A stretch of 64,000 nt of DNA from a virus, in IMG/VR virus record IMGVR_UViG_3300015242_000001. One strand, written 5' to 3'. Each line of letters begins with the position of its first letter. The first letter of the stretch is position 1. Position numbers and translations under genes: made by a program. This document shows positions 4,570 to 61,204 of this stretch, in pieces. The notes beneath the pieces are model-generated. The model worked only from the letters and a program-made list of their open reading frames with translations, was not told the origin of the DNA and did no database searches.

Positions 4570-4586
4570 CTAATAAATTATATTAG
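4570..4586. promoter_or_regulatory. Palindromic box CTAAT-N7-ATTAG (also at 28514-28530, 52947-52963, 60795-60811; TTAAT variant at 41090-41106)
   Basis: Same spaced inverted repeat found at all five promoter regions identified. Confidence 0.6.
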
Positions 4587-28463: not shown

Positions 28464-28535
28464 AATATTTACATCACGTAATTAGTTAATTTTAATCATT
28501 TTAATGAACAATTCTAATTAATTTAATTAGTTTCG

Positions 28536-43810: not shown

Positions 43811-46800
43811 GCAATTATTACAACAGAGTAGCACACCAGAAGATACTTTAAGTGATTTCCCTCAAATAGGAAGTCAACCAACTGCATTTACACCTATCCC
43901 TACAAATGAGAATGATCCTACGAGGCCACAACAGTCATCAAGTTTAGGTGCTCAATTAATAAACCAAGCTAATAAATCAGCCAGTAAACTATCTCCTACC
44001 AATGGTCCCAGAGTTTCATATTCAGAACTCCCCACAAATGGTAGATTTCCTACCTATTCTCCTTTCTTAAGCAATGAAGAATTAGCAGCTCAGTCACAGC
44101 CCTGGTATTTCAAGGCTGGCAATGCTATTACTAAAGGTCTTGGTTTAGCGACTTCTACAGCATTACAGGGAACTGTAGGGGCAGTATATGGTGTAGGTAA
44201 ATGGCTGGAAGATGGGAAATTCTCATCATTCTACAATAATGAATTCAGTCAAGGATTAGATAAGTGGAATCAGCAAATGGAGAACCAGTTCCCTAACTAT
44301 TATACTCATGCTGAACAATCTGCCAATTGGTATTCCCCTACAAATTTCCTTTCTGCTAATTTTTTGTTCGATAAAGTAATAAAGAATTTAGGGTATGCAG
44401 CAGGTGCTTATATTTCAGGTGCTGGATGGGCGAAGGCTTTCACTTTATTAGGAAGTGTATCAAAATTATCAGCCGCAGGTGCGTTAGTTGATGCTTCAAT
44501 TGCGTCAGAAAATGCTATTGCCTCAGTTGCGAATACAAATAAAATAGGGGCTTTAGAAGGAGCATTTGCAAATATAGGTAACAAGTTTGCAGCTAACTAT
44601 AATCTTCTGAATACTACTCAGAGAGCAATGTATGCTGGTCTGATGACTACCGGAGAAGCTGGTATGGAAGCACTTCAAAATGCAAATCAGTTCAGGCAGA
44701 AATTAATAGATAATTATTACAACACAAATGGTCAACTCCCCACAGGAATCGATTTAGATGCCATTAACAAGCAAGTTGATCAAGTTGGAAATACTACATT
44801 CCTATTAAATACAGCCCTCCTCTCCCTTACAAACTATGTACAGCTCCCTAAAATAATGGGTTCTTCATACAACCTTGAGAAAAGGGAGTTTGTAAACGCT
44901 ATAAATAATATAGAAGACATTTCATTGAAAAATGAGGCTGGTGAAACTTTAAATACTTTAGGGAGGACAGCAAAAGATCAATTTTACAAAAGTGCAAAAG
45001 CAACTACTAAATTTGGTAGAATTTCATCTTTGGGAGAATACTTCTTTTCTCCATCTGAAGCATTTGAAGAAGGTGCTCAAAATGTCATTTCTGTAGGTAC
45101 TGAAAATTATTGGAATAAAAAGAATAAAGAAGGGAGTGCTGATGTTTTAAATGACTTATTTGGATATGGTACAAAACAGACACTCACTACTAAGGATGGT
45201 ATTGAACAAATATTGATAGGTGGATTGTCTGGAGCTATCTCTGAGATAAGAGGTAATTTCAAATCTCGTAAAGAACGCGCTGCAAATACTGAATCAGCTG
45301 TACAGGCTTTCAACTCTACATATTTAGGATCTTTCCTTAAATCTGCAAATGATTCAGTAAATAGGCATGATAATTTAGAACAACAGAGAGTAGAGGCTAT
45401 AAAAGGTGGAGATATACTTCAGTCAAAAGACTTGGAGACAGACGAATTAATAAACTATCTTACTCCACGTATTCAGTATGGGAAATATGAATTATTCTTA
45501 AATGATATAGGTCAATTTAAACAAATAGCTTCTACAGATGAGGGTTTAAAGCAGTTACAAGCACAAGGGTTAATTTCTCAAGACGCTACTCAAACGCAAG
45601 TATTGTCTCATTTAGATAGATTACAGCAGTTTGGTAATACTATCAAGGCCCAGTATGAAGCATTGAATATAAAGTATGCTGGATTAAAAAATAAGGGAGG
45701 AGATAGGGTCTACACAGATGATGTCATTAATAAGATGATTTATGCATCTGGTAAAGTAGATGATTATAACAGACGTATCCCCCAAGCCTCTCAAACTGTT
45801 TTAGCAGCTGGTGTACTCACACAACCAATTGTAGAAGCTGTAGTAAATAACACGGAAGATAAGGATGAGTTAATAAAACAAGCAGTTTCTCATATTGAAT
45901 CTCTCCCTATACTGCAAGATGCGAAGGATGAAATAAGGCAAAACTTAGCTGATATTATTGAGATGTCAGTTAGGAGAAAGCAATTTCTGGATGAATACAA
46001 AGATATCAGAGAGAACCCAGTTAACTACCAGGATAAGAATGAATTGAAAGATTCAGAACCCGTTGAGTCTATTCAGATTGGGGATAGAGAGTTGAAAATA
46101 GGTCGTTCTTACACTCCTAGTAATCCCATACAGATAGTAAATAATCAACTTGAATTATCTCCACGTACACAAATCCTCGGTAGAAATTATCTTGATGAAA
46201 TATCTATCACTACAGGTAATGGTGTAAGAAGCGTACCTTTATCACAGGTTCAATCTCAAGATTTCATAGATCAACCTTTAACCAGGAATCAAACAGAATT
46301 AAATAATAGGTTAAATAAAACTATTGAAGATTTCTTCATTAAACAACCTCAACAAAACCCTACATTAACTGATCCTACTTCTACTTTGGAAGAAAAAGTA
46401 CAAGCTGTAAATGATCTCCCCAATAATCTTAATTTATTAAACGATCTCCAAGTTGAGCTTCGTAAAACGTTAGATCAATTCTTAGAAGAGGAACGTTTAG
46501 AACAGGAGAGATTGGATAAATTAGCTGACGAACTTTCCAAAACACAGGATGAAATAAGTGGAGAGTCAGAAACTGATAAACCTGAAGATCTCCCTGTACC
46601 TGAAGATGTAACAAAGGAGCCACGTAAGCCTATTGAAATTAACTTTAAGTCTTCTCGTCCTGCTTCTTACTACGCTCCTTTAAAAGAAGAAAATAATCAG
46701 TATCATAAAAGAGAACAGGAATTTCTTAATCGTATAAATCTATCTTCATTCCCACTAGATAGAGATAAGTTGCGTATTATACCTGTAACAATTAATAACC

Positions 46801-49800
46801 AAGACACTATAGGTCTTAAACATCTTATACCAGAAACCTATGAGGTAAACGGCAAGGAAATAAATAATAACAAAAATATAGATCGTGCAGCCATAGCCCT
46901 TGTTTATGCTTATGAAACCTCTGATGGATTACGTCTAGTAGATAAAGAAGGAAATTTATTAAATAAAATAGGAGAAGAAAATGATCCCACCTCTTATGTG
47001 TATACTTATCTTGCCACAACTGATTTTTCTTATACTGGTGGTGAGAATAAAGATTATACAGGCAAAGTCAACTTTTCCAATCCAAATAAGATTTCTGATG
47101 CTCAAATTAAAGAGATTCAAAAGAAAGCTAGAGAGGATAGGAAGTACCTTTTGTCTTTAAAGGATGCACAACCTTATTCTTTTACTGTTAGTGCTGGTAT
47201 ACCTAATATCATTAGAGATGAAAGTGGTAGTGTAAGACCTTTAAATAATTCCGTTGTTGATTCTCAGATTATTGCACAGTCTGATTTGTCTGATAAAAAA
47301 CTATTATCTTCCAGATTTCCTCTCTCGGATACCTATTTAAAACTTGGAGAGAGTTTCTATAAATTAAATTCCCATAAATTTACTGAGCAAGAAGCTACTA
47401 AAGTGTACGAACTGTTGAGGATAATGTCCAAACAGATCCAGGATAGTTTTGCTTCAACCGGAGCAGTTTCAGTAGATCCTACTTTGCGTAAATATCTTTC
47501 AAGGATTATCTATTTTGACTTCCCAAGAGGTAAAGCCCCACGTCCTCAGCAAGTATGGTTTGATAAGGCTGGCAAACTGCATTTAGGTACATCTTTAGTA
47601 GTTCAACCAGTACAGGAAAATATAGAAGCTAATAAACAAGATATTATTGATTTCTTTAACGGAAAACAGCAAAATGTAAATCCATATCAGGTTAATAATG
47701 ATGGTATATTTACAGAAATTACTTCTGTAAATGGAGATACATATGAAACAGTAAAATGGAAATCATATCAGCATTACCTCCTCTCCCCTATTTATGATCT
47801 CCAGGGAAAGAGTAAGGTAAATGGTACTACCAGAAATGCTATCCTAACTACTAATACGATTGTTCCTCAAATGGTAGATGGTATCCAGGAAGCACCTCTT
47901 ATTAGTAAGTACGTAACTATAGTTGGAGATATAAGTACACAAGCTACTCCCAACACTCCAGCTGAACCTGTAGATACCACTGATCAACCTGAAGTATCAG
48001 AAGAACCAGTTACACCTCCTCTAGATGAATCAATTCCTGAAGAATTACCTGCTGAAGAAGATGTACAGGTAATAAACGAACCTGAAGAAAAGCCTGTTAT
48101 GTATGTATCTTTTATAGATACTATGAACCGGATGAAACCATTAGGTTACACAGAGACTCAGATTGTAGGGATGAAATTGAAGGATCAGGAGAAAATTCTT
48201 AGAGAAAATAATCTATGGTATGAAATTGAAGGATATGATACAGAATTAACTTCATCTGAAGATACTTTAAACAAAGTTAAAGAATTCTTAAAAAGAGTTG
48301 GTACAACAATTGAGCATGTGGAGTCCATTAAAATAAATGGAACTTCACTGTCTGCTGTAGGAGTTGCTGATACAGTGAACAATCTGATACAAGTAGTTGA
48401 TGGAAAGGAAAATGTAGCTTTGACTGAAGAAGCGATGCATATTGCAGTAGATTTAATTGCTACCAATAATCCAGAACTTTATAATCAATTAAAATCTGAA
48501 GCAAAGAAGTATAAACTTTATGATGATGTTGTAAAATCTCCAGAGTATCAAGCTGCTTACGATAACCCCAGTAATCTACAAAAAGAAGCAGTTGCAAAGA
48601 TCCTTACTGAATATGTAATCTACAAAAATGAAAGTACTGAAAAGCCAGAATTGATTGCGGAAGCACAATCTTGGTGGAAACGAGCTTTGGAATTTATAAA
48701 GTCTATCTTTAGTATTGCAAACTTCAATCCTTTTGAAAATGTAGCTACTAAAATATTAAAAGGTACAGAGGATTTTTCTGGTAGTACTATAGAGGATGGT
48801 GGGTTATATTACAAAATCCCATCTTCCCAGGAGTCTACAAAACTGTTTGATAAATTAAAATCCGTAGCTGATAGTATCACTAAGGTAATTAAAGAGAATG
48901 GTAAAGTTAGCTACATTAAAAAAGATAGCTCTCCGGTAAGTAAAACTTTACAGCAAAGAGTAGATGATTATTATAAAGAGAAACATGCAAATAAGGAAAT
49001 TTCAGATACTCAGTTAAAGGATTCTAAGAAAAGGTTAGCAGATGACAATGCAGCACATCAGGATATTTACGATATTTTAGATAGGTATATTGACAGTAAT
49101 ACAGGTTGGGTTAGGAGAAATGAAGGAGGAGAAATAACCCCTTTGGATAAAACAAACATCTCTCAGCTTGATCCTACCAATAGTGAATACTATGATACCA
49201 TAGAGGAGTATTTAAAGGAGACTATTGAATCATATCCTGAAGGTACTCAGTTCCTATTTAATCAAACTGTATATGATGAACAAAATGATGAAGCTGGGAC
49301 ACTTGATTTTGTAGCAATCAAACCTGATGGAACACATGATGATTTGAACTTTAAATTTCTGAATGTAGATACTGAAAAAAGATTTGATGTCCCTTACTAT
49401 GACAAAAGGGCATATAATTTAGAGTTATCCAGGTTATCAAAGACTCTCTCAGATAAGTATGGTTTAAAGAAACAAGGTCTAAGTAGAGCAATTCCTATTG
49501 TCCCTAAATATACTAGAGGTACAGATAACGATCTTACCCTCCAGGATATGGAGATCGGAGATACTACCGTGGAAAGAATTAATAAACGTTACTTACTTCC
49601 AGTACCTTCTGAAGTCGAACCTCCTGTTACAAAAGGAGTAAAAACTTTGATAGATAAACTAAATGAAATACTTTCAGAATTAGAGAAAAATAATACAGAA
49701 AGTAGTACAAAATATGAAGTACAGAAACAGATAAACAGTATTACTTCTGCCATTAGGGTACTGCAAGTACAGGGTAACGTAAATCCTTTAATAAAAACTG

Positions 49801-52800
49801 TTTCAAATCAGGTAGATAATATCAGAAAAACAATAGATCGTTATAATTCAATATACCAATCTGGAAATACTGATTCAATAGCAGAAATAAACACTGAGGA
49901 AGTATCCAAACAATTAGTAGATTCTTATACTGATCTTACTGTGTATACTACTCTTGGAGTAGCATTCAAAGATGTATATTCAGCAGATACTGTAGAATAC
50001 AAGAAATTACGTAACCTCTCCGCTAAAGCAAGAAATATCCAAGAAGATTTGGTGGATATCTCCAAACTACAGGTTAACTCTATTGCTAATAGGTATGGAG
50101 TACAGGGAGTATTATTTGAAGAGAAGAATGTACGTTGGTTAGCGAAGAACTTCATGAGCTTATCTGATGCTCGTACAGCGTCTACCCAAACCTTAAATAA
50201 GATAGTAAACAGAGCTAGGCAGGATAGGGAGTTTGAATTTGAGGGAGAGATTAAAAAATTGAAGAAGCTACAGGATAACTTAAACAAGTCAAATTTAACA
50301 GACAAAGCTCAGGATTTACTGTTTGAGAAACAAGATGGTAAAAAGACTGGATTACTTACTCCCAAGTATAAGAAAGAATTCTATCAAAATTTGAATGAGG
50401 CTTTAACTACAGGGAATAAGGCATGGGTTGAAGAAAATGTAGATATTTCTAAGTACAATGAAGAGTATGAAAAATCTTATACTTCATTTAAAGAATATCT
50501 GGAACAACAGTATGCAGACTATGAAGGTGATGAAAAAGAGGAATTAATAAGTACTCCTCTTGAGAAGTTCGCCAAAGAGTATGACTTTAAGAATCACCCA
50601 GAGACTGCTTTAAATGATCAAAACAATAGATTTCTTAGATTCCCTAAAGGAGATCTTTGGTACAGTGATCAATATAGTCAACTTATACAGAAAGGGAATG
50701 AACCAATCCTTGCTTTATACGACTACATGAAGTCAAAAAATGATGAAGCATATGAAACTGGTTTGTTTAAAACTTACCATGCTACATTCTTTGCTAATGT
50801 AAGGAAGTCATTTTTGGAAAATTTAACATTTGGTTTAACTGAAGACGGTACTTCAGCTATTAGGAACCAGATAGAAAATATCTTCAATTTCAAACTTAAT
50901 CCAGAAGATGATGTTTATGGGTACATTGACCCCATCACTCACCAGCCTAAAGATAAGATATTTGCATATTACACTTCACAAATAAGCGCTGATGAAAAAT
51001 CTTATGATATTTTCAGAGTATTGACTCTGTGGAATCATGAACTGATTAAGTATAAATATCTTTCTCAGGTAGAGAACCAGGTTAAACTACTCCATTTAGT
51101 AGAGTCCAATAAAAACCACTTGGAAACAGATAAGTTCGGCAATATTAAGGCAGAAACTATTGAAGAGGCTATTGCAGCTGGCAATCAAAACAATGCTAAA
51201 TATCTGAAGGAATTTATTGATGCTACTATTTATGGTAAAAGGTTTTCTACAGATCAGCCAGATATGGGGTTGACCGTTGGAGTTGGAAAGATAGCAAAAG
51301 CAATTAATAAAGTATTGGGGGCTGAAATACTCCCTATGCCAGATCAACAGAAGACACAGGTTTCAGTAGTGAAATTTGTAGATGCTATGAATCGTTGGTT
51401 CAGGTTGAAAGCCATGGGGGTAAATCCTCTGTCCGGTATCTCTGCTTGGTTTGGGGGTACTGCAAATGCGGCTCTTAATGCAGGTACATACGGCTCAAAA
51501 AATAATTATTTAGCAGCTCAATTTCGTCTTGCTGCTGGTAAATTTGGTGGGAATGAAGGGAAGAGGTATGCTGCTAATATACAGTATTTCATGCCATTGG
51601 TGGATAATATCTCCGGAGAGAAAGCCAGAGAAATGAGTATAAATAAAGCTCAAAAATACCTCACTTCTGGCTCATTGATGGTATTCCTTAAAACTGCCGA
51701 TAAAATAGTACAATATACCAATATGGTATTTTTTGCAGAAAACCATACTATAGTAGATGGTAAAATTGTGGGGATTCAGCAGTATGTGAAAGAGCAGAAC
51801 ATCTACGATAGAGTACTTGATACATCTGTCCCTTCTCAGGAACGAAAAGCCCTGCAAAAAGATATCAATACAAAGATAGCAGAAAGGAAACGTACTAAAT
51901 CTCTTATTCAACTGGTAAAGGTTGATGGGGAAGATATTTCATTTGAAGGTGTAGAAAGGAATTCAGAAACAGTTAAAGATTTCAGGGATAAAATACAGCA
52001 ATTTACTAGGGAAGCAATTGGTAATTCTACCCCAGAGAATATTTCACAAATTAATAGGACTATAGTAGGACAATCCCTCATGATGTTTAAGTCTTGGATT
52101 CCTCCATTGGTTACAACCCGTTTTGGAGGTTTGAGGTATGTTTCAGGTAAAGATGCTTATGATTATGGTAGAATGAGGATAATGGGGACTGTTATTCGTG
52201 ATCATGGTCTAAAATCCATTAGTACCCTTCTCTCCTACTATACTAGTGGAACAGCTTCTCAAGGTCAGGATAACCTCATTGATACTGCTAAACGCATATA
52301 TCAGCAGAAAGTAGAAGCATTCAGGAAACAAGGTGCATTTGTAACTGATGTTACTGGACAATTGATTACTGATCCATCTACAGGTGAAAATCTGACAGCA
52401 TTCGAGACTAAAATGACAGAGGCTGAATTTGTGGATATGTACTTAAAGGGGTTCGATGCTGCTGTTAAAGATATGTTAGTATGGCTGAGTATGGCTGGTA
52501 TTCTAATATCCATGCGAGTGTATGCTCCAGATAAGGATGAAGAAGATCCTCAAACTAAAGGATATTTTAGACATGGGTTGAGAATGCTGGATAAACTACA
52601 GGATGAAGTAGGGTTTTTCTATAATCCCCTATCTTGGCAAGATGTAATTGGTGGTAAAATATTCCCATCCATAGCTGTATTAACAGACATAAAAAATGTA
52701 ATATGGAATTCCACTATGAATACATTTTTATGGTTAAACGGTGATGAAGATGCTGGTGATAAGAAAGTTGCAAAATACCTGTTTAAAAATATCCCTGGTG

Positions 52801-52892
52801 TTAACCAAGCTATCTATTACATGGCTTTATTTAACTCCGATTTAGCCACTGAATTAGGTATAAAAATACAGTCCAGTTCAGGAGGTAGATAG
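43797..52892 (+). CDS. Giant (3031 aa) polyvalent cargo protein with zincin-like and PD-(D/E)xK-like domains
   Basis: N-terminal Gly/Ala-rich membrane-like helices; LTEEAMH at about 48426-48440; AGTLDFVAIKPDG...NFK at about 49290-49355. Confidence 0.65.
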   Translation: MLVDKQLLQQSSTPEDTLSDFPQIGSQPTAFTPIPTNENDPTRPQQSSSLGAQLINQANKSASKLSPTNGPRVSYSELPTNGRFPTYSPFLSNEELAAQSQPWYFKAGNAITKGLGLATSTALQGTVGAVYGVGKWLEDGKFSSFYNNEFSQGLDKWNQQMENQFPNYYTHAEQSANWYSPTNFLSANFLFDKVIKNLGYAAGAYISGAGWAKAFTLLGSVSKLSAAGALVDASIASENAIASVANTNKIGALEGAFANIGNKFAANYNLLNTTQRAMYAGLMTTGEAGMEALQNANQFRQKLIDNYYNTNGQLPTGIDLDAINKQVDQVGNTTFLLNTALLSLTNYVQLPKIMGSSYNLEKREFVNAINNIEDISLKNEAGETLNTLGRTAKDQFYKSAKATTKFGRISSLGEYFFSPSEAFEEGAQNVISVGTENYWNKKNKEGSADVLNDLFGYGTKQTLTTKDGIEQILIGGLSGAISEIRGNFKSRKERAANTESAVQAFNSTYLGSFLKSANDSVNRHDNLEQQRVEAIKGGDILQSKDLETDELINYLTPRIQYGKYELFLNDIGQFKQIASTDEGLKQLQAQGLISQDATQTQVLSHLDRLQQFGNTIKAQYEALNIKYAGLKNKGGDRVYTDDVINKMIYASGKVDDYNRRIPQASQTVLAAGVLTQPIVEAVVNNTEDKDELIKQAVSHIESLPILQDAKDEIRQNLADIIEMSVRRKQFLDEYKDIRENPVNYQDKNELKDSEPVESIQIGDRELKIGRSYTPSNPIQIVNNQLELSPRTQILGRNYLDEISITTGNGVRSVPLSQVQSQDFIDQPLTRNQTELNNRLNKTIEDFFIKQPQQNPTLTDPTSTLEEKVQAVNDLPNNLNLLNDLQVELRKTLDQFLEEERLEQERLDKLADELSKTQDEISGESETDKPEDLPVPEDVTKEPRKPIEINFKSSRPASYYAPLKEENNQYHKREQEFLNRINLSSFPLDRDKLRIIPVTINNQDTIGLKHLIPETYEVNGKEINNNKNIDRAAIALVYAYETSDGLRLVDKEGNLLNKIGEENDPTSYVYTYLATTDFSYTGGENKDYTGKVNFSNPNKISDAQIKEIQKKAREDRKYLLSLKDAQPYSFTVSAGIPNIIRDESGSVRPLNNSVVDSQIIAQSDLSDKKLLSSRFPLSDTYLKLGESFYKLNSHKFTEQEATKVYELLRIMSKQIQDSFASTGAVSVDPTLRKYLSRIIYFDFPRGKAPRPQQVWFDKAGKLHLGTSLVVQPVQENIEANKQDIIDFFNGKQQNVNPYQVNNDGIFTEITSVNGDTYETVKWKSYQHYLLSPIYDLQGKSKVNGTTRNAILTTNTIVPQMVDGIQEAPLISKYVTIVGDISTQATPNTPAEPVDTTDQPEVSEEPVTPPLDESIPEELPAEEDVQVINEPEEKPVMYVSFIDTMNRMKPLGYTETQIVGMKLKDQEKILRENNLWYEIEGYDTELTSSEDTLNKVKEFLKRVGTTIEHVESIKINGTSLSAVGVADTVNNLIQVVDGKENVALTEEAMHIAVDLIATNNPELYNQLKSEAKKYKLYDDVVKSPEYQAAYDNPSNLQKEAVAKILTEYVIYKNESTEKPELIAEAQSWWKRALEFIKSIFSIANFNPFENVATKILKGTEDFSGSTIEDGGLYYKIPSSQESTKLFDKLKSVADSITKVIKENGKVSYIKKDSSPVSKTLQQRVDDYYKEKHANKEISDTQLKDSKKRLADDNAAHQDIYDILDRYIDSNTGWVRRNEGGEITPLDKTNISQLDPTNSEYYDTIEEYLKETIESYPEGTQFLFNQTVYDEQNDEAGTLDFVAIKPDGTHDDLNFKFLNVDTEKRFDVPYYDKRAYNLELSRLSKTLSDKYGLKKQGLSRAIPIVPKYTRGTDNDLTLQDMEIGDTTVERINKRYLLPVPSEVEPPVTKGVKTLIDKLNEILSELEKNNTESSTKYEVQKQINSITSAIRVLQVQGNVNPLIKTVSNQVDNIRKTIDRYNSIYQSGNTDSIAEINTEEVSKQLVDSYTDLTVYTTLGVAFKDVYSADTVEYKKLRNLSAKARNIQEDLVDISKLQVNSIANRYGVQGVLFEEKNVRWLAKNFMSLSDARTASTQTLNKIVNRARQDREFEFEGEIKKLKKLQDNLNKSNLTDKAQDLLFEKQDGKKTGLLTPKYKKEFYQNLNEALTTGNKAWVEENVDISKYNEEYEKSYTSFKEYLEQQYADYEGDEKEELISTPLEKFAKEYDFKNHPETALNDQNNRFLRFPKGDLWYSDQYSQLIQKGNEPILALYDYMKSKNDEAYETGLFKTYHATFFANVRKSFLENLTFGLTEDGTSAIRNQIENIFNFKLNPEDDVYGYIDPITHQPKDKIFAYYTSQISADEKSYDIFRVLTLWNHELIKYKYLSQVENQVKLLHLVESNKNHLETDKFGNIKAETIEEAIAAGNQNNAKYLKEFIDATIYGKRFSTDQPDMGLTVGVGKIAKAINKVLGAEILPMPDQQKTQVSVVKFVDAMNRWFRLKAMGVNPLSGISAWFGGTANAALNAGTYGSKNNYLAAQFRLAAGKFGGNEGKRYAANIQYFMPLVDNISGEKAREMSINKAQKYLTSGSLMVFLKTADKIVQYTNMVFFAENHTIVDGKIVGIQQYVKEQNIYDRVLDTSVPSQERKALQKDINTKIAERKRTKSLIQLVKVDGEDISFEGVERNSETVKDFRDKIQQFTREAIGNSTPENISQINRTIVGQSLMMFKSWIPPLVTTRFGGLRYVSGKDAYDYGRMRIMGTVIRDHGLKSISTLLSYYTSGTASQGQDNLIDTAKRIYQQKVEAFRKQGAFVTDVTGQLITDPSTGENLTAFETKMTEAEFVDMYLKGFDAAVKDMLVWLSMAGILISMRVYAPDKDEEDPQTKGYFRHGLRMLDKLQDEVGFFYNPLSWQDVIGGKIFPSIAVLTDIKNVIWNSTMNTFLWLNGDEDAGDKKVAKYLFKNIPGVNQAIYYMALFNSDLATELGIKIQSSSGGR

Positions 52893-52937: not shown

Positions 52938-52968
52938 TTTCATAAACTAATTATTTTCATTAGTTTTG
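52938..52968 (+). promoter_or_regulatory. Bacteroidota-type promoter for the glycosyltransferase operon
   Basis: TTTC (52938-41)-N19-TAGTTTTG (52961-68), with ATG at 52986. Confidence 0.6.
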
Positions 52969-52985
52969 TATAATAAAACCAACCT

Positions 52986-53747
52986 ATGTCAGATTTGAAA
53001 ATAGTGTGCCTTTGTCTTTCGGCAGGTAGACATTTTTGTTTAGAAAGATCTGTATCATTTTTCTTAGATCAAGACTACCCAAACAAGCACCTAATTATAT
53101 ATCAAAACTCATCAGTACCTCAAAAGCTGGATGACTCTATAGATACATCTTTAGTAACTCTGATAAATAATAATATTTTTAGTGAAACTGGAGAACCATA
53201 TACAAATTTAGGAGATATTCATAACGATGCGATAAAACATATCCCTGAAGATGCTGATGTAGTGAACTTCTTCGATGACGACGACATAAATGCAAAATAT
53301 TTTATATATGAAGGTATACAGGGGTACAAGAGAGCAGTAGAAGCCGGTAAAAAGGCATTTAAACCCCGCACTTGCATTTTTAGGAGTATGGGAAAGATGG
53401 AGCCAGTACAAAATATCTTAGAGGGATCTTGGTTTGTGAGTGCAAAATACATTAAAGAATCGAAATTTATTTCAGGAGTAAATGTTAGCCACCATCACGG
53501 TTGGTGTAATGGTTTAATAGCTGCTCAAGATTTTTTATCTGATGATTTTTCAGAACCCGATTATGTGTACTGCTGGGGAGAAGAAGAAGTCCCCGTTTAC
53601 AAAACTTCTGGTGCTGGTGAAACTTGGAATAATTTTGCAAATTATCATAGATTTTCACAAGATCATGGTGATGGAGTAATCTCCAGAATGAATGTTGACA
53701 AATATTACAAGGAAATAGAAGAGTACAAAAAATCCAGAGGTGTTTGA
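52986..53747 (+). CDS. Glycosyltransferase, GT-A fold (GT2-like)
   Basis: IVCLCLSAGR...SVSFFLDQDYPNKHLII...FFDDDD; no transmembrane segment. Confidence 0.75.
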   Translation: MSDLKIVCLCLSAGRHFCLERSVSFFLDQDYPNKHLIIYQNSSVPQKLDDSIDTSLVTLINNNIFSETGEPYTNLGDIHNDAIKHIPEDADVVNFFDDDDINAKYFIYEGIQGYKRAVEAGKKAFKPRTCIFRSMGKMEPVQNILEGSWFVSAKYIKESKFISGVNVSHHHGWCNGLIAAQDFLSDDFSEPDYVYCWGEEEVPVYKTSGAGETWNNFANYHRFSQDHGDGVISRMNVDKYYKEIEEYKKSRGV

Positions 53748-54399
53748 TATCCCTGTTATTATAAACAATTTTAATAGAGTCACAACCACTAAGAAATTAG
53801 TAAGTGATTTACAAAACTTAGGATATACAAACGTTATCATTTTAGATAATCAATCTACATATACCCCACTTCTTGAATGGTATAAAACAAATCCCTGTAG
53901 AGTAGAACATTTAGAGAGGAATTTTCAGAGTTTAGCTGTGTATGACTGTGGCATTATAAAAGAATTTAAAGACCTCCCTTGGGTAGCCTATACAGATTCA
54001 GATATTGAACTTAACCCAAATACTCCAGCTGATTTTGTAAATACTCTTATTGAGAAAGCTGAGAAATACGATTACCCTAAAGCTGGCCTATCCATTCGTA
54101 TTGATGATCTCCCAGATACTAATTTTGCAAATGAATATAGAATTTGGGAAAGAAAATACTGGGAACATCCATTAGAAGAGAATGTATTTGATGCGCAGGT
54201 TGATACTACATTTTGTATAATAAAACCATCTCTTAGATTCGACTATAGAGCGTTAAGAGTAGCTGGAGATTTAACCTGTATTCACCGTCCCTGGTACGTA
54301 GATTTTGACAATTTGGATGAAGAAGAACTTCACTATATAGAAAAATCCCTCGACTATTCTACCTATAAACGATACTACTACACCCATAAGAATAAGTAA
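53740..54399 (+). CDS. Glycosyltransferase, GT-A fold (GT2-like)
   Basis: IPVIINNFNR...VIILDNQST...YTDSDI (DxD motif); GTG start overlapping the previous stop. Confidence 0.75.
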   Translation: MFDIPVIINNFNRVTTTKKLVSDLQNLGYTNVIILDNQSTYTPLLEWYKTNPCRVEHLERNFQSLAVYDCGIIKEFKDLPWVAYTDSDIELNPNTPADFVNTLIEKAEKYDYPKAGLSIRIDDLPDTNFANEYRIWERKYWEHPLEENVFDAQVDTTFCIIKPSLRFDYRALRVAGDLTCIHRPWYVDFDNLDEEELHYIEKSLDYSTYKRYYYTHKNK

Positions 54400-57209
54400 T
54401 GAAATTAATTAAGGATTTCCTCCTGTTAACCCCAAAAGCATTTTATAATGCTACCCGTTCAGAGCTTTGCCGTCAAGCCTCTGGATGTACCTCATCTGGC
54501 GGCCTTACTCAAGTATATAGAACGAATTCAGCTACTGTTACCTGGACTGGAGATGGTACACAAGCTAATCCGCTTGTAGCCACTGCTGCCGGAGGAACTA
54601 CCCCAACACTTCAACAAGTAACTACAGTAGGATCTACCACTAATCAAAATATGACTATTAACAGTGCTGTTCCTCAAATGAGAGTGGAGAGTACTGGATC
54701 AGGATCTAGCTTAGTCCTAACTACATCAACAAATTCAAATTCAGCATCAATAAATAATGATGCAAATAGTTCACTGATAATCCTTAATGGGGATTCAGGT
54801 TCTAGTATAAAAATTAACAATGCTGCTGGCAATACTGGAAGAGATTTAACTTTTGTAAGAGGAACAAACACAGTTACTAATACTTTCTTTACTGATGGTA
54901 GAGTTTCAGGTACAGCTGCTACAAATGCTGGAGAGTTTACGATCAAAAGTCAAGTACCCACTTTGGCTCTTGGTGCTACACTTACGGGGTTCGTTCCTAC
55001 CACTAATACCCCCGTTGCTGATACTGATACTTTATCTGACGCTTTGGGGAAATATCAAGCTCAAATTGATGCTTTAGCTGCTACTGGAACAGGTACAGTT
55101 TCATCTGTATCCCTTACAGCTCCGTCAGTGTTTACAGTATCTGGATCTCCGGTTACAACTACTGGAACCCTAGCCGTTACATTTGCAACCGGACAAACTC
55201 AAAACTTAGTACTCGCTTCTCCAAATGGTAGTAGTGGCGCAGTAAGTTTACGTGCTTTAGTTACAGCAGATATCCCGGTTTTAGATGCTGCTAAAATAAC
55301 AACAGGTACATTAGGTACTGCTCGTTTAGGATCTGGTACAGCAGACAACACAGTATTTTTACGAGGGGATGGTACATGGACAACAACCGGAATGTTGATT
55401 TCGCTGAATGCCCTTACAGCATCAACTCAAACATTCGCTGTAAGTACTACTGGTACGGATTTTACTATATCTTCAGCAACTAGTACTCACACTTTTAACT
55501 TACCCACAGCCAGTGCTTCTAATAGAGGTGCTTTAGCGTCTGCTGACTGGACAACATTCAATGGCAAACTTGGTACATTAAATACACTCACCGGAGCCAC
55601 CCAAACCTTCGCAGTGGGTTCGGCAGGAACTGACTTTGCAATTTCATCTACAGGTACTACCCATACATTTAACATTCCCGATGCCTCAGCTGCAAACAGA
55701 GGAGTAGTAACAACGGGTACGCAGACATTTGGAGGTAGTAAAACATTTAGCGCAATTACAGCGACCACTTCTATTCAAATTACCTCAACCAGCTCTAATT
55801 TATACGTACCTCTTGCTAATACAGCTCAAACTATTACTGCTGCAACACAATACCTTTTCGGTGGAGCCTCTACTATATTTTTGAGGGCCGGATTTAGAGG
55901 TTCAACATCTACAACTCTTACAGCCAATACTAGTTCAGCTAATGTGGTGATGGGGAAAGTAGATATTACAACTGCTGCAACAGGAACTCATGCAGTTTTA
56001 GCAAATCTTGTAGTAACAGCCCCTACTTTTACATCAGGAGGCGCTGCCGTCACAAATTTTGCTTCATTATATATTGATGCTGCTCCAACAGGTGCTACTA
56101 ATAACTGGGCCTCTTATGTTGCAGCAGGTGCATCTTATTTTGGTGGAAATACAGTATTTGCTTCAAATGGTACTCCAGCTGTAGGTTCTGTCCCCACAGG
56201 TACAGATACCGCAGGTAATTGGACATGGCAAACGAATGTACCTTCAGTGAATGCGTTAACTGGAGCTTTGACTATAGCCGTTGGTACATCTGGTACTGAC
56301 GTGGCTGTAAGTGCGGCTAGTACGACTGTTACAATCAACATTCCAAGTGCAAGTGCTACTGCTAGAGGAGTAGTTACTACAGGTGCTCAAACGCTTACTG
56401 GTGTAAAAACCTTTGCGAGTGATTTGAATGTTCCTGGTATCGCAATGTCAGGAAAATTGGGTATCGGTACTGGTACGACTGTCCCCACAAGTGCAAACCT
56501 CTATTCTATTAGTACTTCATTACCACAGTATAAAGGCGCGTATGATGCATCCAATTATATATTACTTACTACAGCAAGTAATGGTACAACTACTTTTGCT
56601 TTAACAGGTACTTCTCCAATTTTCATCTTTAGTCAGCAAGTTAGATTATCAGCAGGAACTCCTGGTACTGGTAAAGTACTGACTGATTCAGATGGTAGTG
56701 GATCAGCTGTATGGAGCACCCCCACTGCAAACATTCCCCTGTTTGATCATATAAGTACAGTAGGTAATACAGGTACTAGTGAAACAGATCTTTACACTGA
56801 TACTACAGCTGCCAACAGATTAAACGCTAATGGTGAAAAATTAAAGGCTAGTTATGGTGGATCTTTTGTTGGTTCAGCTACAGCTAGTAGACAAATGAGA
56901 ACATACTTTGGTGGAACTCTCATATTCGATAGTGGAGGATTAACAATGTCTCTAGCAGGAGATTGGGAAATGGACGTGTTAATTATTAGGACTGGTACTA
57001 CCACAGCAAGGGCTGTTGTTACATTTAATACCCCTGGAGCATCAACTGCTGTTTATACAACTACAACATTACTTACGGGACTTACGCTCTCAGGAACTAA
57101 TATTTTGAAAATAACCGGAACCGCAGCAGGTGCAGGAGCCGCTACAAATGATATCACAGCAAAGTTAGGGACTGTATCATGGATTCCCGCTTCAGCTAGT
57201 GTTAGTTAA
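54399..57209 (+). CDS. Thr/Gly/Ala-rich fibre protein
   Basis: Shares VSGSPVTTxGTL...ASPNGSSG...RALxTxDIP repeats with 20144 and PTGTDTAGNWTWQT with 23300; internal LNxLTxxTQTFAV repeats. Confidence 0.7.
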   Translation: MKLIKDFLLLTPKAFYNATRSELCRQASGCTSSGGLTQVYRTNSATVTWTGDGTQANPLVATAAGGTTPTLQQVTTVGSTTNQNMTINSAVPQMRVESTGSGSSLVLTTSTNSNSASINNDANSSLIILNGDSGSSIKINNAAGNTGRDLTFVRGTNTVTNTFFTDGRVSGTAATNAGEFTIKSQVPTLALGATLTGFVPTTNTPVADTDTLSDALGKYQAQIDALAATGTGTVSSVSLTAPSVFTVSGSPVTTTGTLAVTFATGQTQNLVLASPNGSSGAVSLRALVTADIPVLDAAKITTGTLGTARLGSGTADNTVFLRGDGTWTTTGMLISLNALTASTQTFAVSTTGTDFTISSATSTHTFNLPTASASNRGALASADWTTFNGKLGTLNTLTGATQTFAVGSAGTDFAISSTGTTHTFNIPDASAANRGVVTTGTQTFGGSKTFSAITATTSIQITSTSSNLYVPLANTAQTITAATQYLFGGASTIFLRAGFRGSTSTTLTANTSSANVVMGKVDITTAATGTHAVLANLVVTAPTFTSGGAAVTNFASLYIDAAPTGATNNWASYVAAGASYFGGNTVFASNGTPAVGSVPTGTDTAGNWTWQTNVPSVNALTGALTIAVGTSGTDVAVSAASTTVTINIPSASATARGVVTTGAQTLTGVKTFASDLNVPGIAMSGKLGIGTGTTVPTSANLYSISTSLPQYKGAYDASNYILLTTASNGTTTFALTGTSPIFIFSQQVRLSAGTPGTGKVLTDSDGSGSAVWSTPTANIPLFDHISTVGNTGTSETDLYTDTTAANRLNANGEKLKASYGGSFVGSATASRQMRTYFGGTLIFDSGGLTMSLAGDWEMDVLIIRTGTTTARAVVTFNTPGASTAVYTTTTLLTGLTLSGTNILKITGTAAGAGAATNDITAKLGTVSWIPASASVS
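56193..56235 (+). repeat. 43-bp perfect direct repeat, copy 2
   Basis: Identical to 25043-25085. Confidence 0.9.
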
Positions 57210-57236
57210 TTGAATTATAAATACAAAAAATAAATT

Positions 57237-57827
57237 ATGGCATTCTATCAATTCGGAGCAGTAGCAATTGTAGCTGGAGATTTGCAGTATACATTATTTA
57301 ATATCGAGGAAGGACCGGCTGTATTCCTTATGGGTTACAGTACCGTTGGTGATGGTGGAGGTGGATTTTTTAAGTGGAAGAAATATGAATTTAGTACTCC
57401 CCCAGTTCCAGATTCTTCAGTTACTTATCCATTGGGTTATAACATTATTGCTGGTAATCCAGTATTTCCTAATTGCAGATTTGAACGAATAAATAATTAT
57501 GATATACCACATACCCCACTTACTATCACGCAGTCAACGGCCTCTAGAGCAGTAAATGGTTCATATGTAATATCTACTATTAAAAATTGTATTGCAACTT
57601 ATTCTTTTAGTGTTAACTCACTGTTAACAGCAGGCACAGTATTCTTTGAAATATCTCCAGATAATAGTACTTGGCAAACTGTATCACAATTCGGAGTAGG
57701 AGCAGGTCTTACATTAACTACAATGGGGTGTGTTCATGGTTTTGTACCAAAATCATATTATACCCGACTTAGAACTACAGGATTGGCAATACTTACTATA
57801 CTAAATCAACAGGAAGTACTTATCTAA
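57237..57827 (+). CDS. Short protein with a tailspike-type N-terminal domain
   Basis: GYSTVGDGGGGFFKW resembles the N-termini of 23300 and 25578. Confidence 0.55.
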   Translation: MAFYQFGAVAIVAGDLQYTLFNIEEGPAVFLMGYSTVGDGGGGFFKWKKYEFSTPPVPDSSVTYPLGYNIIAGNPVFPNCRFERINNYDIPHTPLTITQSTASRAVNGSYVISTIKNCIATYSFSVNSLLTAGTVFFEISPDNSTWQTVSQFGVGAGLTLTTMGCVHGFVPKSYYTRLRTTGLAILTILNQQEVLI

Positions 57828-57855
57828 TAGAATTAAAAACCAAAAATAAATACAT

Positions 57856-58485
57856 ATGGATAGATTAAGTATAATCAATTATTTGATTAAAAATAATAAT
57901 TATACAAGTTATTGCAATTTGGGTGTTTTCACGGGGTACACACTTGATAGTGTACTCTGTATACACAAAGTAGGAGTTGATCCTTCACCTGAACATTACA
58001 GAGGTAATTGTATCATAAAGAGTAAAACTTCAGATGATTATTTCAAACAATTGGATGAGGAAAAGTACTCTCACAAATTTGACCTCTTTTTTGTGGACGG
58101 TATGCATTTAGAAGAATACGTTTTAAGGGATATATCTAATTGTTTAAGATATTTATCAGACAATGGTAAAATAATTCTCCATGACTGCCTTCCAAGTAAG
58201 TGGGAACATGCACAAGAGCAATGGCTAGAACCAGAATGGAATGGTACAGTTTATAAAGCAATTCTTAGGTTCATGCGAGATGATATTTTCGGAAGTTATA
58301 CAGTAAGAACAGTGAATACAGATTATGGCTGTACTATAATTGAACGAAATGAAATCCCCCTGGAAAAGAATATTGATTTTGAAATGTATGATAAAGCCAT
58401 TGAAGACTTCAATTACTTCTTAGAGAATAAAGAAAAGCTATTCAACATTATAACCCCAGAAGAGTTTTATCAACTTTATAGCTAA
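57856..58485 (+). CDS. Class I SAM-dependent methyltransferase (Methyltransf_24-like, possibly a sugar O-methyltransferase)
   Basis: YCNLGVFTG; FDLFFVDGMH...D..N....L..NG.IILHDC. Confidence 0.8.
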   Translation: MDRLSIINYLIKNNNYTSYCNLGVFTGYTLDSVLCIHKVGVDPSPEHYRGNCIIKSKTSDDYFKQLDEEKYSHKFDLFFVDGMHLEEYVLRDISNCLRYLSDNGKIILHDCLPSKWEHAQEQWLEPEWNGTVYKAILRFMRDDIFGSYTVRTVNTDYGCTIIERNEIPLEKNIDFEMYDKAIEDFNYFLENKEKLFNIITPEEFYQLYS

Positions 58486-58518
58486 AATATCCCCAACTAC
58501 ATATTGAAAAACCAACCT

Positions 58519-59541
58519 ATGAAAGACCTTATATTTTTATCAGCAATTCCTGATGATCACTACTTCATTTTTCAGGTAGAAACTCAAATTAATTCATTTC
58601 AAAAATTTGGGTATAGTGAAAAAATGCACATCCTTCTTTATCGTGCGCCGGATAGACCCGAATGGAATAAAGAATGGGAAATTTTAGAACAGAGATACCC
58701 AGAAGTAAAGTTCTTTAGATATGAAGATAGGGGGATATTCAATATTCTAAGAAATGTTTACCTCCCTATATTAAGACCTCATATTATCTGGCAGCATTTT
58801 GAAAAATATACAGAATTATCTGAAAAAGCTATATTCTATCATGATAGTGATATAACGATACATTCCACTATCCCATTTGAAAAATGGTTAGATGACGACA
58901 TTTGTTACATGAGTAATACAAATAGTTATATAAATGCATCATACTGGGACTCTAAAGTAAATGATGTACTTCCTTCAAAATTGGAAGAGTATAAAAAAGT
59001 AGATGTGTTAGATGAGGCTTGCAAATTAGTAGGAATAACGAGAGAAATTGCAGTTAAAAATAATGAGCATTCGGGCGGCGCTCAAACCCTCTTTAAAAAT
59101 ATTGATGCGAACTACTGGAAGAAAGTTGAAGAAGATTGTATAAAGATTAGGATCTATTTATCTGGTATTAATTCAAAGTATTTTGAGTCTGAAGACAGAG
59201 GATTACAAGGATTTTGCTCAGATATGTGGAGTTGCTTGTGGAATACTTGGCTTAGAGGAACTGAAACAAAAATAGTTCCAGAACTTTCTTTTGTTTGGGC
59301 TACTGATCACATATCTAAATGGGATTCCTCTTCAATTTTTCATAATGCTGGAGCAGGTCCGCAGCCAATGAGAGTGGGGGATGTAGATCATCAGATATTT
59401 TTTAAAGGTCACTACGCATCAAATCAAAAATCCCCATTTGATGATAAAGAACAACCCTATTTAGATGCAACCTCTCCTGATTTTTGCACATACAATTATG
59501 TACAGGAGATTAAAGAAGTTAGAAACAAATATTATAAATAA
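58519..59541 (+). CDS. GT-A glycosyltransferase resembling peptidyl-serine galactosyltransferase / HPAT (GT96/GT95-like)
   Basis: Ordered motifs YFIFQ...NSFQKFG, YLPILRP, FYHDSD (DxD), GGAQ, GFCSDMW and IFHNAG; ATG at 58519 preferred over TTG at 58504. Confidence 0.65.
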   Translation: MKDLIFLSAIPDDHYFIFQVETQINSFQKFGYSEKMHILLYRAPDRPEWNKEWEILEQRYPEVKFFRYEDRGIFNILRNVYLPILRPHIIWQHFEKYTELSEKAIFYHDSDITIHSTIPFEKWLDDDICYMSNTNSYINASYWDSKVNDVLPSKLEEYKKVDVLDEACKLVGITREIAVKNNEHSGGAQTLFKNIDANYWKKVEEDCIKIRIYLSGINSKYFESEDRGLQGFCSDMWSCLWNTWLRGTETKIVPELSFVWATDHISKWDSSSIFHNAGAGPQPMRVGDVDHQIFFKGHYASNQKSPFDDKEQPYLDATSPDFCTYNYVQEIKEVRNKYYK

Positions 59542-59559
59542 CCCCTTAAATTTTAAAGA

Positions 59560-59943
59560 ATGCCGAGCGCTAGACACAATCTAAAGGCTTATGTCTTGTA
59601 TAAAAATGACAAGCTGGTCCCCGGAGTACTGGTATTAAGAACAAAGAAACCTACTGGTAATAATTGGTCAGAGGTACCTGCAAGATGTTGCTCAGATGTA
59701 ACAATTCCAGGATTTTTCAGGTCACATGGTCCCTTAAAGGGCTATATAAAGTATGCTAAAGATGGATATGTAATCTCTAGTTCTACTATTTTACGATCTA
59801 AGAAGCCCTCTCAAGGTCGCTGGGTAGAATTGCCAATACATCTCTGCTGCGAGTATTCCACCACGAGCACCACAACTACTTCCACCAGTACCTCAACCTC
59901 TACTACTTCATCCACAACTACCACAACAACTACCATCCCATAA
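59560..59943 (+). CDS. Small protein with two tandem ~45-aa repeats and a poly-Thr/Ser tail
   Basis: LKAYVLY...LRTKKP...W.EVP..CC and LKGYIKY...LRSKKP...W.ELP..CC; 26-residue S/T tract at 59857-59934. Confidence 0.7.
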   Translation: MPSARHNLKAYVLYKNDKLVPGVLVLRTKKPTGNNWSEVPARCCSDVTIPGFFRSHGPLKGYIKYAKDGYVISSSTILRSKKPSQGRWVELPIHLCCEYSTTSTTTTSTSTSTSTTSSTTTTTTTIP

Positions 59944-60000
59944 TATCAGTTAGGAAATTGTTTGTTAGCCAATTACCCACCCTCAAACCTAACTAATGCA

Positions 60001-60264
60001 ATGGCAAATCAACTGCAAGAATTTAAATCATTCGGTATACCTGTATGGATGCGTAAATATCTATATGGATCAATACTTACTGGCCTAATTACTTTTAATG
60101 TTATTCAATACGTTGAAAATAAAAAATGTAAAGATAAAATGTATCAAGAAATGAAATCAATTTTAGATAGAGAGCTTAAATTCGCTGAAGAGAGAGTAAG
60201 TGCTAAAATAGATAATACACAGAAGAAAGTAGACAGCCTAGATAACAAAATAAATAAGAAATAA
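60001..60264 (+). CDS. Membrane-anchored coiled-coil protein (possible lysis/spanin component)
   Basis: One hydrophobic helix (YLYGSILTGLITFNVIQY) followed by a coiled coil; ATG at 60001. Confidence 0.4.
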   Translation: MANQLQEFKSFGIPVWMRKYLYGSILTGLITFNVIQYVENKKCKDKMYQEMKSILDRELKFAEERVSAKIDNTQKKVDSLDNKINKK

Positions 60265-60548
60265 TGGAAATAATAAAAGCCGGACTAGGCTGTATCACAT
60301 TCTTATTTATTATGGTGGGGTTTACCTCCCCTAAGTCGTTATCAGGGAAGTGTGACGGATGTGACGCATATCTCTCTCAAAAAGATTCTATCACAATAAG
60401 TAGAGAATTTAAAAAGCCGATTGACTCCTTTACAGTCAAAAACCTGAAAAAAGTTGATCAATTAAACGATTCAATCAACAAAATAGAAACCAAGATAAAT
60501 GAAAATAGAAACCAAAGATCTTCCCCCCATACTAAGGGAAAACGATAG
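60264..60548 (+). CDS. N-terminally anchored coiled-coil protein (possible lysis/spanin component)
   Basis: Hydrophobic N-terminus, coiled-coil C-terminus; TAATG coupling. Confidence 0.4.
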   Translation: MEIIKAGLGCITFLFIMVGFTSPKSLSGKCDGCDAYLSQKDSITISREFKKPIDSFTVKNLKKVDQLNDSINKIETKINENRNQRSSPHTKGKR

Positions 60549-60792
60549 TTCTTACCTTCACTTTATAGAAGATTCTATTAATCATGCTGACCCCAGTGCA
60601 AACCTGTTTATAAGGCAGAATCTTGAAGGTTTGGTGTTCTCTATCCAACCGTCCCTGGAATCCACTAAACAGCCTTTAATTGATAATCTCTTACGTTCCC
60701 ACAGTAGACTTTTTCTGAAGATAAAATTCAGTTCATCTTTATCAATTCAGAAGCAAATTATTTTTTCAATTAAGTTCGATGAGATTTGGTAA
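60499..60792 (+). CDS. Hypothetical protein
   Basis: 97-aa ORF with ATG after an A-rich leader; overlaps the previous ORF. Confidence 0.55.
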   Translation: MKIETKDLPPILRENDSSYLHFIEDSINHADPSANLFIRQNLEGLVFSIQPSLESTKQPLIDNLLRSHSRLFLKIKFSSSLSIQKQIIFSIKFDEIW

Positions 60793-60816
60793 ATCTAATG
60801 ATATTTATTAGTTTTG
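60785..60816 (+). promoter_or_regulatory. Bacteroidota-type promoter
   Basis: TTTG (60785-88)-N20-TAGTTTTG (60809-16), full consensus. Confidence 0.75.
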
Positions 60817-61153: not shown

Positions 61154-61179
61154 TTCCCTGTCCTTATGAAAATCTGAAG

Positions 61180-61204
61180 GGTAGCCGTAATGGCTACCTT
61201 TTTT
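61180..61204 (+). terminator. Rho-independent terminator at the convergent strand switch
   Basis: GGTAGCC-GTAAT-GGCTACC followed by TTTTTT. Confidence 0.85.

Follow-up and report, generated by a model that had tools for sequence, protein, structure and literature searches.

Which molecules are modified by the glycosyltransferases (GTs) that a crAss-like phage carries at the end of its late genes is the question raised by the IMG/VR virus record IMGVR_UViG_3300015242_000001. The stretch of 64,000 nucleotides (nt) analysed here, referred to as the window, covers the late part, one half, of a crAss-like phage genome and encodes on its plus strand a late operon with three GT-A-type genes, a methyltransferase gene and, directly 3' of the last GT gene, a 127-amino-acid (aa) protein ending in a serine/threonine (S/T) tail. 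An earlier, sequence-only reading of the locus had proposed cytoplasmic O-glycosylation of virion poly-S/T tracts by these enzymes, and this core claim is supported by the co-occurrence of enzyme and tracts, by protein tails tracking the enzyme in lactococcal phages and by a fold search. With a probability of roughly two in three, as judged from sequence comparison and modelling, the phage would thus encode a cytoplasmic O-glycosylation system acting on poly-Thr tags of virion proteins. As the pairing of enzyme and tail recurs in very different phages, the virions are probably sugar-coated.

The central component is a 340-aa GT-A glycosyltransferase encoded at 58519-59541 (+; a possible TTG start at 58504 would give 345 aa), the candidate initiator of glycans on poly-Thr. 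It is a member of the functionally uncharacterised family phrog_4417 (1e-42) and carries a DxD motif at D109-S-D111. Throughout the 37 homologues (45-60% identical) in the alignment behind the structure model, D109, D111, H275 and G278 are invariant. The AlphaFold model, with a predicted local distance difference test (pLDDT) value of 91.5, retrieves from Swiss-Prot as top fold match the Arabidopsis peptidyl-serine alpha-galactosyltransferase SGT1 of family GT96 (template-modelling score, TM, of 0.63), followed by the hydroxyproline O-arabinosyltransferase HPAT1 of GT95 (TM 0.61), and GT8 enzymes such as glycogenin score lower (TM 0.41-0.49). In a search of AFDB clusters, uncharacterised relatives come on top, followed by algal HPAT-like proteins, and the closest solved structures are GT8 and GT6 enzymes. 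The GT96/HPAT-like assignment made previously is therefore borne out at the level of the fold but is weak at the level of sequence, where PF23452 (HPAT) is matched weakly by 2 of the 37 family members (best E 2e-4) and the window protein has no match. The other Pfam match recurring in the family, DUF3417, is at chance level (two members, best E 0.058), no match to Glyco_transf_8 was obtained for the window protein or for 36 homologues, and a PDB sequence search with the four enzymes of the operon gave nothing useful.

Putative acceptor sites are conspicuous in the window. Four proteins (genes starting at 9381, 14071, 15762 and 59560) together hold eleven pure S/T runs of at least seven residues, grouped into seven regions, compared with 0.45 runs on average and a maximum of 3 in 200 residue shuffles. 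The tracts are written with ten codons, in agreement with the mixed codons noticed in the sequence-only reading, and replication slippage as their origin is ruled out by this usage, an identical codon occurring at most three times in succession. Besides an 18-residue C-terminal S/T tail (10431-10484, +) on a 372-aa protein (9381-10499) in the head/virion block 3' of the portal and major head genes, a 15-residue tract (14314-14358, +) is found in a 448-aa protein (14071-15417) and nine tracts in four linker regions (15915-15980, 16308-16481, 17772-17915 and 19374-19529, +) of a 1454-aa appendage protein (15762-20126). The 127-aa protein (59560-59943, +), a candidate dedicated glycan acceptor, indeed ends in the 26 S/T residues described before (59857-59934), followed by IP and the stop codon. 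N-terminal of this tail, it has two copies of a non-repetitive domain of about 45 aa (at about 59572-59691 and 59731-59850), each closing with W-x-E-x-P-x3-CC and both found by a hidden Markov model of the domain (2e-8 and 6e-10). The consensus of the latter reads ..LKAYVRFDGTGRIV.GSLILRRKKPKVGKW.EI.AYECC, and its structure model (pLDDT 81) shows three short strands.

Relatives of the 340-aa enzyme are encoded on at least 463 contigs among the 2.9 million of IMG/VR, and linkage was counted at the 80 best related loci, mostly crAss-like genomes of 105-118 kb. A homologue of the 127-aa protein is found near the GT gene in 77 of these 80 contigs, mostly beginning 3-22 nt past the GT stop codon. 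Genes with S/T tracts at these loci belong nearly all to the same family (132 of 140) and are all located on the GT strand. The family comprises about 3.6 copies per locus, with the 45-aa domain always at the N-terminus (loci L003-L162, e.g., L010:13209-17090, L043:11010-13001, L127:5833-7029 and L137:11079-12077) and, C-terminal of it, either poly-Thr blocks (T7-8 split by AAP or VAP) or adhesin-type modules (BspA-type leucine-rich repeats, LRR, Fib_succ_major, DUF285 and PKD). One payload is an LCIB-type beta-carbonic-anhydrase-like domain. An anchor-gene search revealed a single related locus with adequate flank but without the GT96-like gene, on IMGVR_UViG_3300028025_002503, and its three genes of the 45-aa-domain family carry no S/T tract. 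As to other neighbours, in 72 of the 80 relatives (L011:11479-11886 and 71 others; cluster 2) the poly-T genes are followed by a conserved DUF5856 protein, which is His-rich and resembles a four-helix protein, and the window, lacking a DUF5856 gene, has two unrelated small genes at 59962-60548 in its place. Directly 5' of the GT96-like gene, a NUMOD4/HNH homing-endonuclease gene is present at 16 of the 80 loci (L011:9393-9995 and 15 others; cluster 25), which may help the module to move.

Co-occurrence of the GT96-like gene with poly-T/S had been set as a test beforehand. Runs of seven ACN codons, (ACN)7, occur in each of the 18 GT-positive crAss-like genomes that are complete or nearly so, with 3-26 runs each and on one strand only, whereas the reversed pattern used as control occurs 0-2 times. 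Some of these runs are far from the GT gene, as is likewise the case in the window. The five GT-positive isolates have (ACN)7 runs as well, in contrast to none on either strand in six GT-negative crAss-like or related genomes (Lbo-JY46, cr118_1, Cellulophaga phi14:2, Flavobacterium Fpv1, Azobacteroides ProJPt-Bp1 and crAss001). Accordingly, the linkage stands at 23/23 versus 0/6 and extends across lineages.

The enzyme family is present in 75 deposited phage genomes, mostly of Firmicutes phages, and the pairing of GT and poly-Thr is seen in phages of crAss-like, sipho and myo type whose hosts belong to two phyla. In Lactobacillus phage iLp84, the GT gene separates the capsid gene from the head-tail connector. 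Capsid and tail tube of this phage end in ...VPTTTTTTTSK and ...GETTTTTTTSK, respectively, and directly 5' of the GT gene a 129-aa protein is encoded that has five poly-T blocks. Lactococcus phage CHPC836 carries the GT gene directly 3' of the capsid gene, with a capsid tail of ...APTTTTTTQATTTTTSHA and a tail-tube end of ...ASTTTTTTTHA. In Enterococcus phage VPE25, the GT gene is located between unannotated capsid-region genes and genes 5' of the major tail protein, and the tail tube shows a T10 run 3 residues ahead of the stop (...TTTTTTTTTTAGK); an unannotated 52-aa open reading frame (ORF) with three poly-T blocks adjoins the GT gene in this phage (L002:5587-5745). The GT gene of Staphylococcus phage PMBT8 adjoins a tail-protein ORF with an S-T16 run 5 residues ahead of the stop (...QSHIL), the "major tail protein" being annotated as a 105-aa piece that holds this run (L281:6600-6935). 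Finally, in the myovirus-like Chryseobacterium phage MA9V-3 (Baseplate_J and Gp10_C), the GT gene is found inside the baseplate module, with two proteins bearing long T/S tracts encoded directly 5' of it.

A finer test was possible with 80 IMG/VR relatives of the CHPC836 capsid. T-tails are present on both capsid and tail tube in each of the five that possess an intact GT gene, whereas among those without GT 60 show no tail and 4 a short T5-7 run only. In addition, two relatives retaining a 168-nt remnant of the GT gene have no tail. In these lactococcal-type prophage contigs, L298 and L312, the remnant is positioned at about 6272-6439, 3' of the capsid gene, and the poly-Thr tail of the capsid is lost. 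Sampling in the reverse direction, from a random set of IMG/VR sequences with (ACN)10, resulted in GT genes at 8 of 96 loci with in-frame poly-T ORFs, always directly adjacent, and in 5 of 34 whole poly-T contigs, to be compared with the roughly 463 GT-positive contigs in the total of 2.9 million. Presence/absence and reverse sampling together indicate that the enzyme predicts poly-Thr almost perfectly, while poly-Thr predicts the enzyme only partly.

Based on these comparisons, the following mechanism can be proposed. A soluble 340-aa GT-A enzyme with a DxD metal site would act late in infection, using a host nucleotide sugar, and attach the first sugar to Thr or Ser of pure poly-Thr/Ser tracts; catalysis on threonine and the identity of the sugar are points at which we infer from fold and linkage. 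Acceptors would be the 127-aa protein encoded directly 3' as well as the tails and linkers of the virion-block proteins (genes 9381, 14071 and 15762). The two GT2-type enzymes would probably extend the glycan and the Methyltransf_24 enzyme would probably O-methylate it, and the outcome might be mucin-like glycan brushes on the particle, serving shielding, stability or adhesion. A broader formulation, which could equally well hold or fail, is that poly-Thr represents a portable glyco-tag read by one soluble phage GT family related to plant GT95/GT96, so that any tagged virion protein becomes sugar-coated. The module would have spread among phages of podo, sipho and myo type that infect Bacteroidota and Firmicutes, one crAss-like clade with an expanded family of 45-aa anchors would show mucin-like tails or adhesin domains, and GT2 and methyltransferase would diversify the glycan.

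The enzymes assigned to the later steps precede the initiator in the operon. At 52986-53747 (+), a 253-aa GT2-type GT-A glycosyltransferase with a DDDD motif at residues 97-100 is encoded, a candidate glycan extender. It has no Pfam match, but in an Atlas structure search it matches a viral GT2 cluster with TM 0.84, and bacterial GT2 proteins as well as GT2+Methyltransf_24 fusions with TM 0.68-0.70; homologues in related contigs are 30-39% identical. The second GT2-like GT-A glycosyltransferase (219 aa, 53740-54399, +), with homologues at 11 of the 80 related loci, falls just short of the PF00535 cut-off (22.7 versus 23.3 bits, E 1e-4) and scores 0.99 to viral "Glyco_tranf_GTA_type" clusters in the Atlas feature search. 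Homologues of the window's GT2-like proteins in relatives pass the same cut-off with 36.9-38.4 bits, and both GT2-like calls of the sequence-only reading can be retained. The same applies to its S-adenosylmethionine (SAM)-dependent methyltransferase, a 209-aa protein (57856-58485, +) matching PF13578 (Methyltransf_24) at 9e-10 and 39.8 bits versus a cut-off of 26.3 bits, and a candidate sugar O-methyltransferase. In relatives, the Methyltransf_24 gene sits between GT2 genes and gives a weak match to rhamnosyl O-methyltransferase/CmcI (RMNT_CmcI). None of the enzymes has a transmembrane segment (maximum 19-residue hydropathy at most 1.09), as had been claimed.

Several observations weigh against phage-encoded glycosylation of the tracts or against parts of the proposed pathway. 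The Fisher p-value of 2e-6 for 23/23 versus 0/6 is uncorrected for shared ancestry, and the 18 crAss-like positives all come from a single clade. Most poly-T contigs in the random viral sample do not encode the GT. As GT8 and GT6 enzymes act on many acceptor types, the fold alone cannot fix the acceptor, and modelling the 340-aa enzyme and the 127-aa protein as a complex gave a score of 0.00, a value carrying no weight either way. For the 45-aa domain, no PDB fold match was obtained at E ≤ 0.001, and the placement of the 127-aa protein on the virion is presumed from its genomic setting. Moreover, a cassette of GT2b-like, Methyltransf_24 and one or two GT2 genes is found in relatives on the opposite strand, adjoining PhoH and RecA (e.g., L011:15860-18362, -), and the five GT-positive isolates encode neither GT2 nor Methyltransf_24; hence, GT2s and methyltransferase could serve another pathway. 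Full-text literature searches returned no article dealing with the enzyme family, with phage poly-Thr tags or with glycosylation of crAss-like virions.

The position of the cassette in relatives, away from the GT96-like gene, and its absence from the Firmicutes and Chryseobacterium isolates would fit a split pathway, in which the GT96/95-like enzyme glycosylates the poly-Thr tags while the GT2s and the Methyltransf_24 protein modify host envelope polysaccharide during infection or methylate another substrate, their place in the operon being a rearrangement peculiar to this phage. The name "DNA methyltransferase" given by PHROGs to the methyltransferase families speaks for it as well, but a split pathway is considered unlikely. 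Among the GT-positive crAss-like genomes, GT2 is present in 14 of 18 and Methyltransf_24 in 8 of 18, whereas both are missing from all six GT-negative ones, and the virion-glycosylation cassette of mycobacteriophage Che8 has the same GT2 plus Methyltransf_24 make-up. In addition, the window enzymes have no membrane segments, which are usual in GT2s coupled to polymer export, and the genes are co-transcribed with the GT96-like gene in the window. Judging from the gene order, GT2 and methyltransferase genes appear to have been moved into the late plus-strand operon in this phage. The isolates lacking them indicate that the minimal system consists of the GT95/96-like enzyme and the tags, with the other enzymes being optional; extension of the glycan by the GT2s and its methylation are thus reasonable but unproven.

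With glycosylation of poly-Thr by the GT accepted, the 127-aa family could still be located off the virion, being released at lysis or remaining intracellular as decoys, adhesives or adhesin carriers. Its 45-aa domain has no structural match that would support placement on the particle, and the BspA-type LRR, Fib_succ_major, DUF285 and PKD domains of its members are typical of secreted or cell-surface adhesins. This variant seems quite unlikely, however, as the genes close the late virion block, phage fibres and decoration proteins are usually built in this way, from a conserved N-terminal module joined to C-terminal payloads that can be exchanged, the proteins tagged elsewhere are capsid and tail-tube subunits, and neither signal peptide nor transmembrane segment is present.

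Very unlikely is a role of the tracts as unmodified linkers or spacers, with the GT acting on capsule, lipopolysaccharide (LPS), teichoic acid or a small molecule and the adjacency reflecting shared late expression. Surface proteins with several domains commonly contain S/T-rich linkers, the tracts of the 1454-aa protein do sit between domains, LPS glycosyltransferases are among the GT8-like folds, and the frequency of poly-T contigs without GT in the random sample would also fit. In the near-identical lactococcal phages, however, it is C-terminal tails and not linkers that track the GT and are lost where only its remnant is left. The pairing is found in three virion morphotypes and in two host phyla with different envelopes, and the six GT-negative crAss-like or related genomes are devoid of any poly-T run. 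Modification of the host envelope would not account for C-terminal tails that follow the GT in phages whose hosts differ in their envelopes.

Hypermodification of DNA, with the GTs glycosylating hydroxymethylated or hydroxylated pyrimidines against restriction, is barely credible, since hydroxymethylcytosine (hmC), hydroxymethyluracil (hmU) or 5-hydroxycytosine (5hoC) would need an enzyme of the thymidylate synthase family, which is encoded in none of the 18 complete related genomes, Tet_JBP was matched in none of them either (in a search without positive control), and the same GT occurs in temperate siphophages of 36-39 kb between capsid and head-tail genes. In favour of this function, a methyltransferase is present in the window and phage glycosyltransferases are classically DNA-modifying (PMC13326640; 10.1101/2023.12.21.572611), but the DNA-modifying arabinosyl- and glucosyltransferases listed in a paper on DNA glycosylation match sucrose-phosphate synthase, BshA and PimA, i.e., GT-B-type enzymes unlike the fold of the 340-aa protein.

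The genomic setting places the putative O-glycosylation genes among the late functions. In a protein database, the 340-aa enzyme is found on a contig of 126,075 bp. The window encodes the portal at 755-3325 (phrog_6547, 5e-94) and the major head protein at 5949-7499, and the virion block is closed, after tail and cargo proteins, by a 3031-aa giant protein (43797-52892) that is read as virion RNA polymerase from size and position only. The closest cultured relative of the portal is that of Leptolyngbya phage Lbo-JY46, a cyanophage (30% identity over 80%), which has no GT96-like gene, GT2, Methyltransf_24 or poly-Thr runs. A nucleotide search showed the operon to be unlike any deposited phage, and the major capsid protein of the window has no close relatives in IMG/VR. 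Directly 3' of the 3031-aa gene, in the late plus-strand block, the operon extends from 52986 to 60792 (+) and consists of seven tightly packed genes and then three small genes up to a palindromic box at 60795. The order of the seven is as previously claimed, i.e., GT2-like, GT2-like, fibre, 196-aa protein, methyltransferase, 340-aa enzyme and 127-aa protein.

Separating the 3031-aa gene from the operon, a 93-nt gap contains the palindromic box CTAATTATTTTCATTAG (52947-52963), overlapped by a Bacteroidota-type -7-like element TAGTTTTG (52959-52966). A pattern search of the window for CTAAT-N7-ATTAG gave 4 matches versus 0.29 expected, all intergenic (4570-4586, 28514-28530, 52947-52963 and 60795-60811). 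As one copy stands 5' of the capsid operon, the statement that both operons are headed by the same box is confirmed, and the palindrome is probably the binding site of a late regulator marking four promoter regions of the late block. The latter ends 3' of a 103-aa gene with a strong terminator-like hairpin of 12 pairs and a T run (61176-61202, +; terminator scan). Of the remaining operon products, the fibre-like protein (936 aa, 54399-57209, +) is rich in Thr, Ser, Gly and Ala (19.6% T, 10.6% S) and free of pure S/T tracts; Pfam gives weak BppL_N and DUF4225 matches only, and partial homologues are found at 6 of the 80 related loci. The 196-aa protein (57237-57827, +) shows nothing significant in Pfam, PHROG or NCBIfam, so that the label "spike-type adaptor" assigned to it earlier finds no backing there, and it has no homologue at the 80 related loci. 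A 94-aa protein at the end of the operon (60264-60548) has a strongly hydrophobic N-terminus (19-residue hydropathy 1.99) and is possibly a lysis protein of the holin or spanin type.

To our knowledge, actinobacteriophages are the only phages whose own enzymes have been shown to glycosylate the virion, and in this group glycosylation shields particles from antibodies. According to the accounts of this work in later articles, phage GTs modify capsid and tail-tube C-termini in mycobacteriophages Che8 (gp108-110), Corndog (gp38) and Myrna (Freeman et al. 2023, Cell Host Microbe 31:1216, via PMC12363180, PMC12619734, PMC11256854). In the validated Che8 cassette, gp108 is a GT2+Methyltransf_24 fusion, gp109 is GT2-like and gp110 is a GT25 enzyme. 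Common to both systems are soluble phage-encoded GTs and the combination of GT2 with Methyltransf_24. On the other hand, the third enzyme is GT95/96-like here and GT25 in Che8, the essential gp110 showing no detectable similarity to the 340-aa protein (hhalign probability 0.05%), and the systems differ in host phylum and phage group, in the pure poly-Thr/Ser tag and in the dedicated small-protein family of the crAss-like phages. As no significant pairwise or profile similarity between the window enzymes and Che8 gp108-110 was detected, with Pfam families alone being shared, the system is analogous and not orthologous. Virion glycosylation in mycobacteriophages is closest in function, whereas the plant GT96 and GT95 families are closest in fold.

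The plant and algal enzymes SGT1 (GT96) and HPAT1-3/RDN1/PLENTY (GT95) start O-glycans on extended, repetitive low-complexity tracts in extensins and small peptides. Besides the fold matches and the weak PF23452 signal, there are clear differences, as identity amounts to 12-15% and plant SGT1 and HPAT are type II membrane proteins of the Golgi acting on Ser or hydroxyproline by proline-rich repeats, whereas the phage enzyme is soluble, predicted to be cytoplasmic and paired with poly-Thr. With GT8 enzymes (glycogenin, galactinol synthase, LPS WaaO/RfaJ and Bacillus subtilis YfnD/YfnF), which are top matches among solved structures and include in glycogenin a protein (Tyr) glycosyltransferase, the family shares the GT-A fold, the DxD motif and the C-terminal His, but differs by the lower TM scores and the missing Glyco_transf_8 match. 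A further parallel are the serine-rich-repeat adhesins of Gram-positive bacteria, where soluble cytoplasmic GTs encoded beside the acceptor gene (GtfA/GtfB starting, GT8/GT2 extending) act on long Ser/Thr-rich tracts. Initiation there is by a GT-B (GT4) pair, with export by accessory Sec, as opposed to a putative GT-A initiator followed by virion assembly or release in the phage. Published glycan data were found for no carrier of the 340-aa enzyme family. What the present analysis adds is the occurrence of the module in a crAss-like setting, its carrier family, crAss-like controls without the GT, the result that DNA-modification genes are absent from relatives and the domain parallel with Che8.

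If the proposed O-glycosylation of poly-Thr tags is true, sugar-coated virions would be common, occurring in at least 463 viral contigs as well as in phage isolates infecting Enterococcus, Lactobacillus, Lactococcus, Staphylococcus and Chryseobacterium. This would affect phage stability, adhesion to mucus and other surfaces and immune recognition in phage therapy, as well as virion proteomics and the reading of cryo-electron microscopy maps. Tag and enzyme would also represent a simple, genetically encoded pair for cytoplasmic O-glycosylation in bacteria, and an evolutionary link would lead from phage enzymes to the families glycosylating plant extensins.

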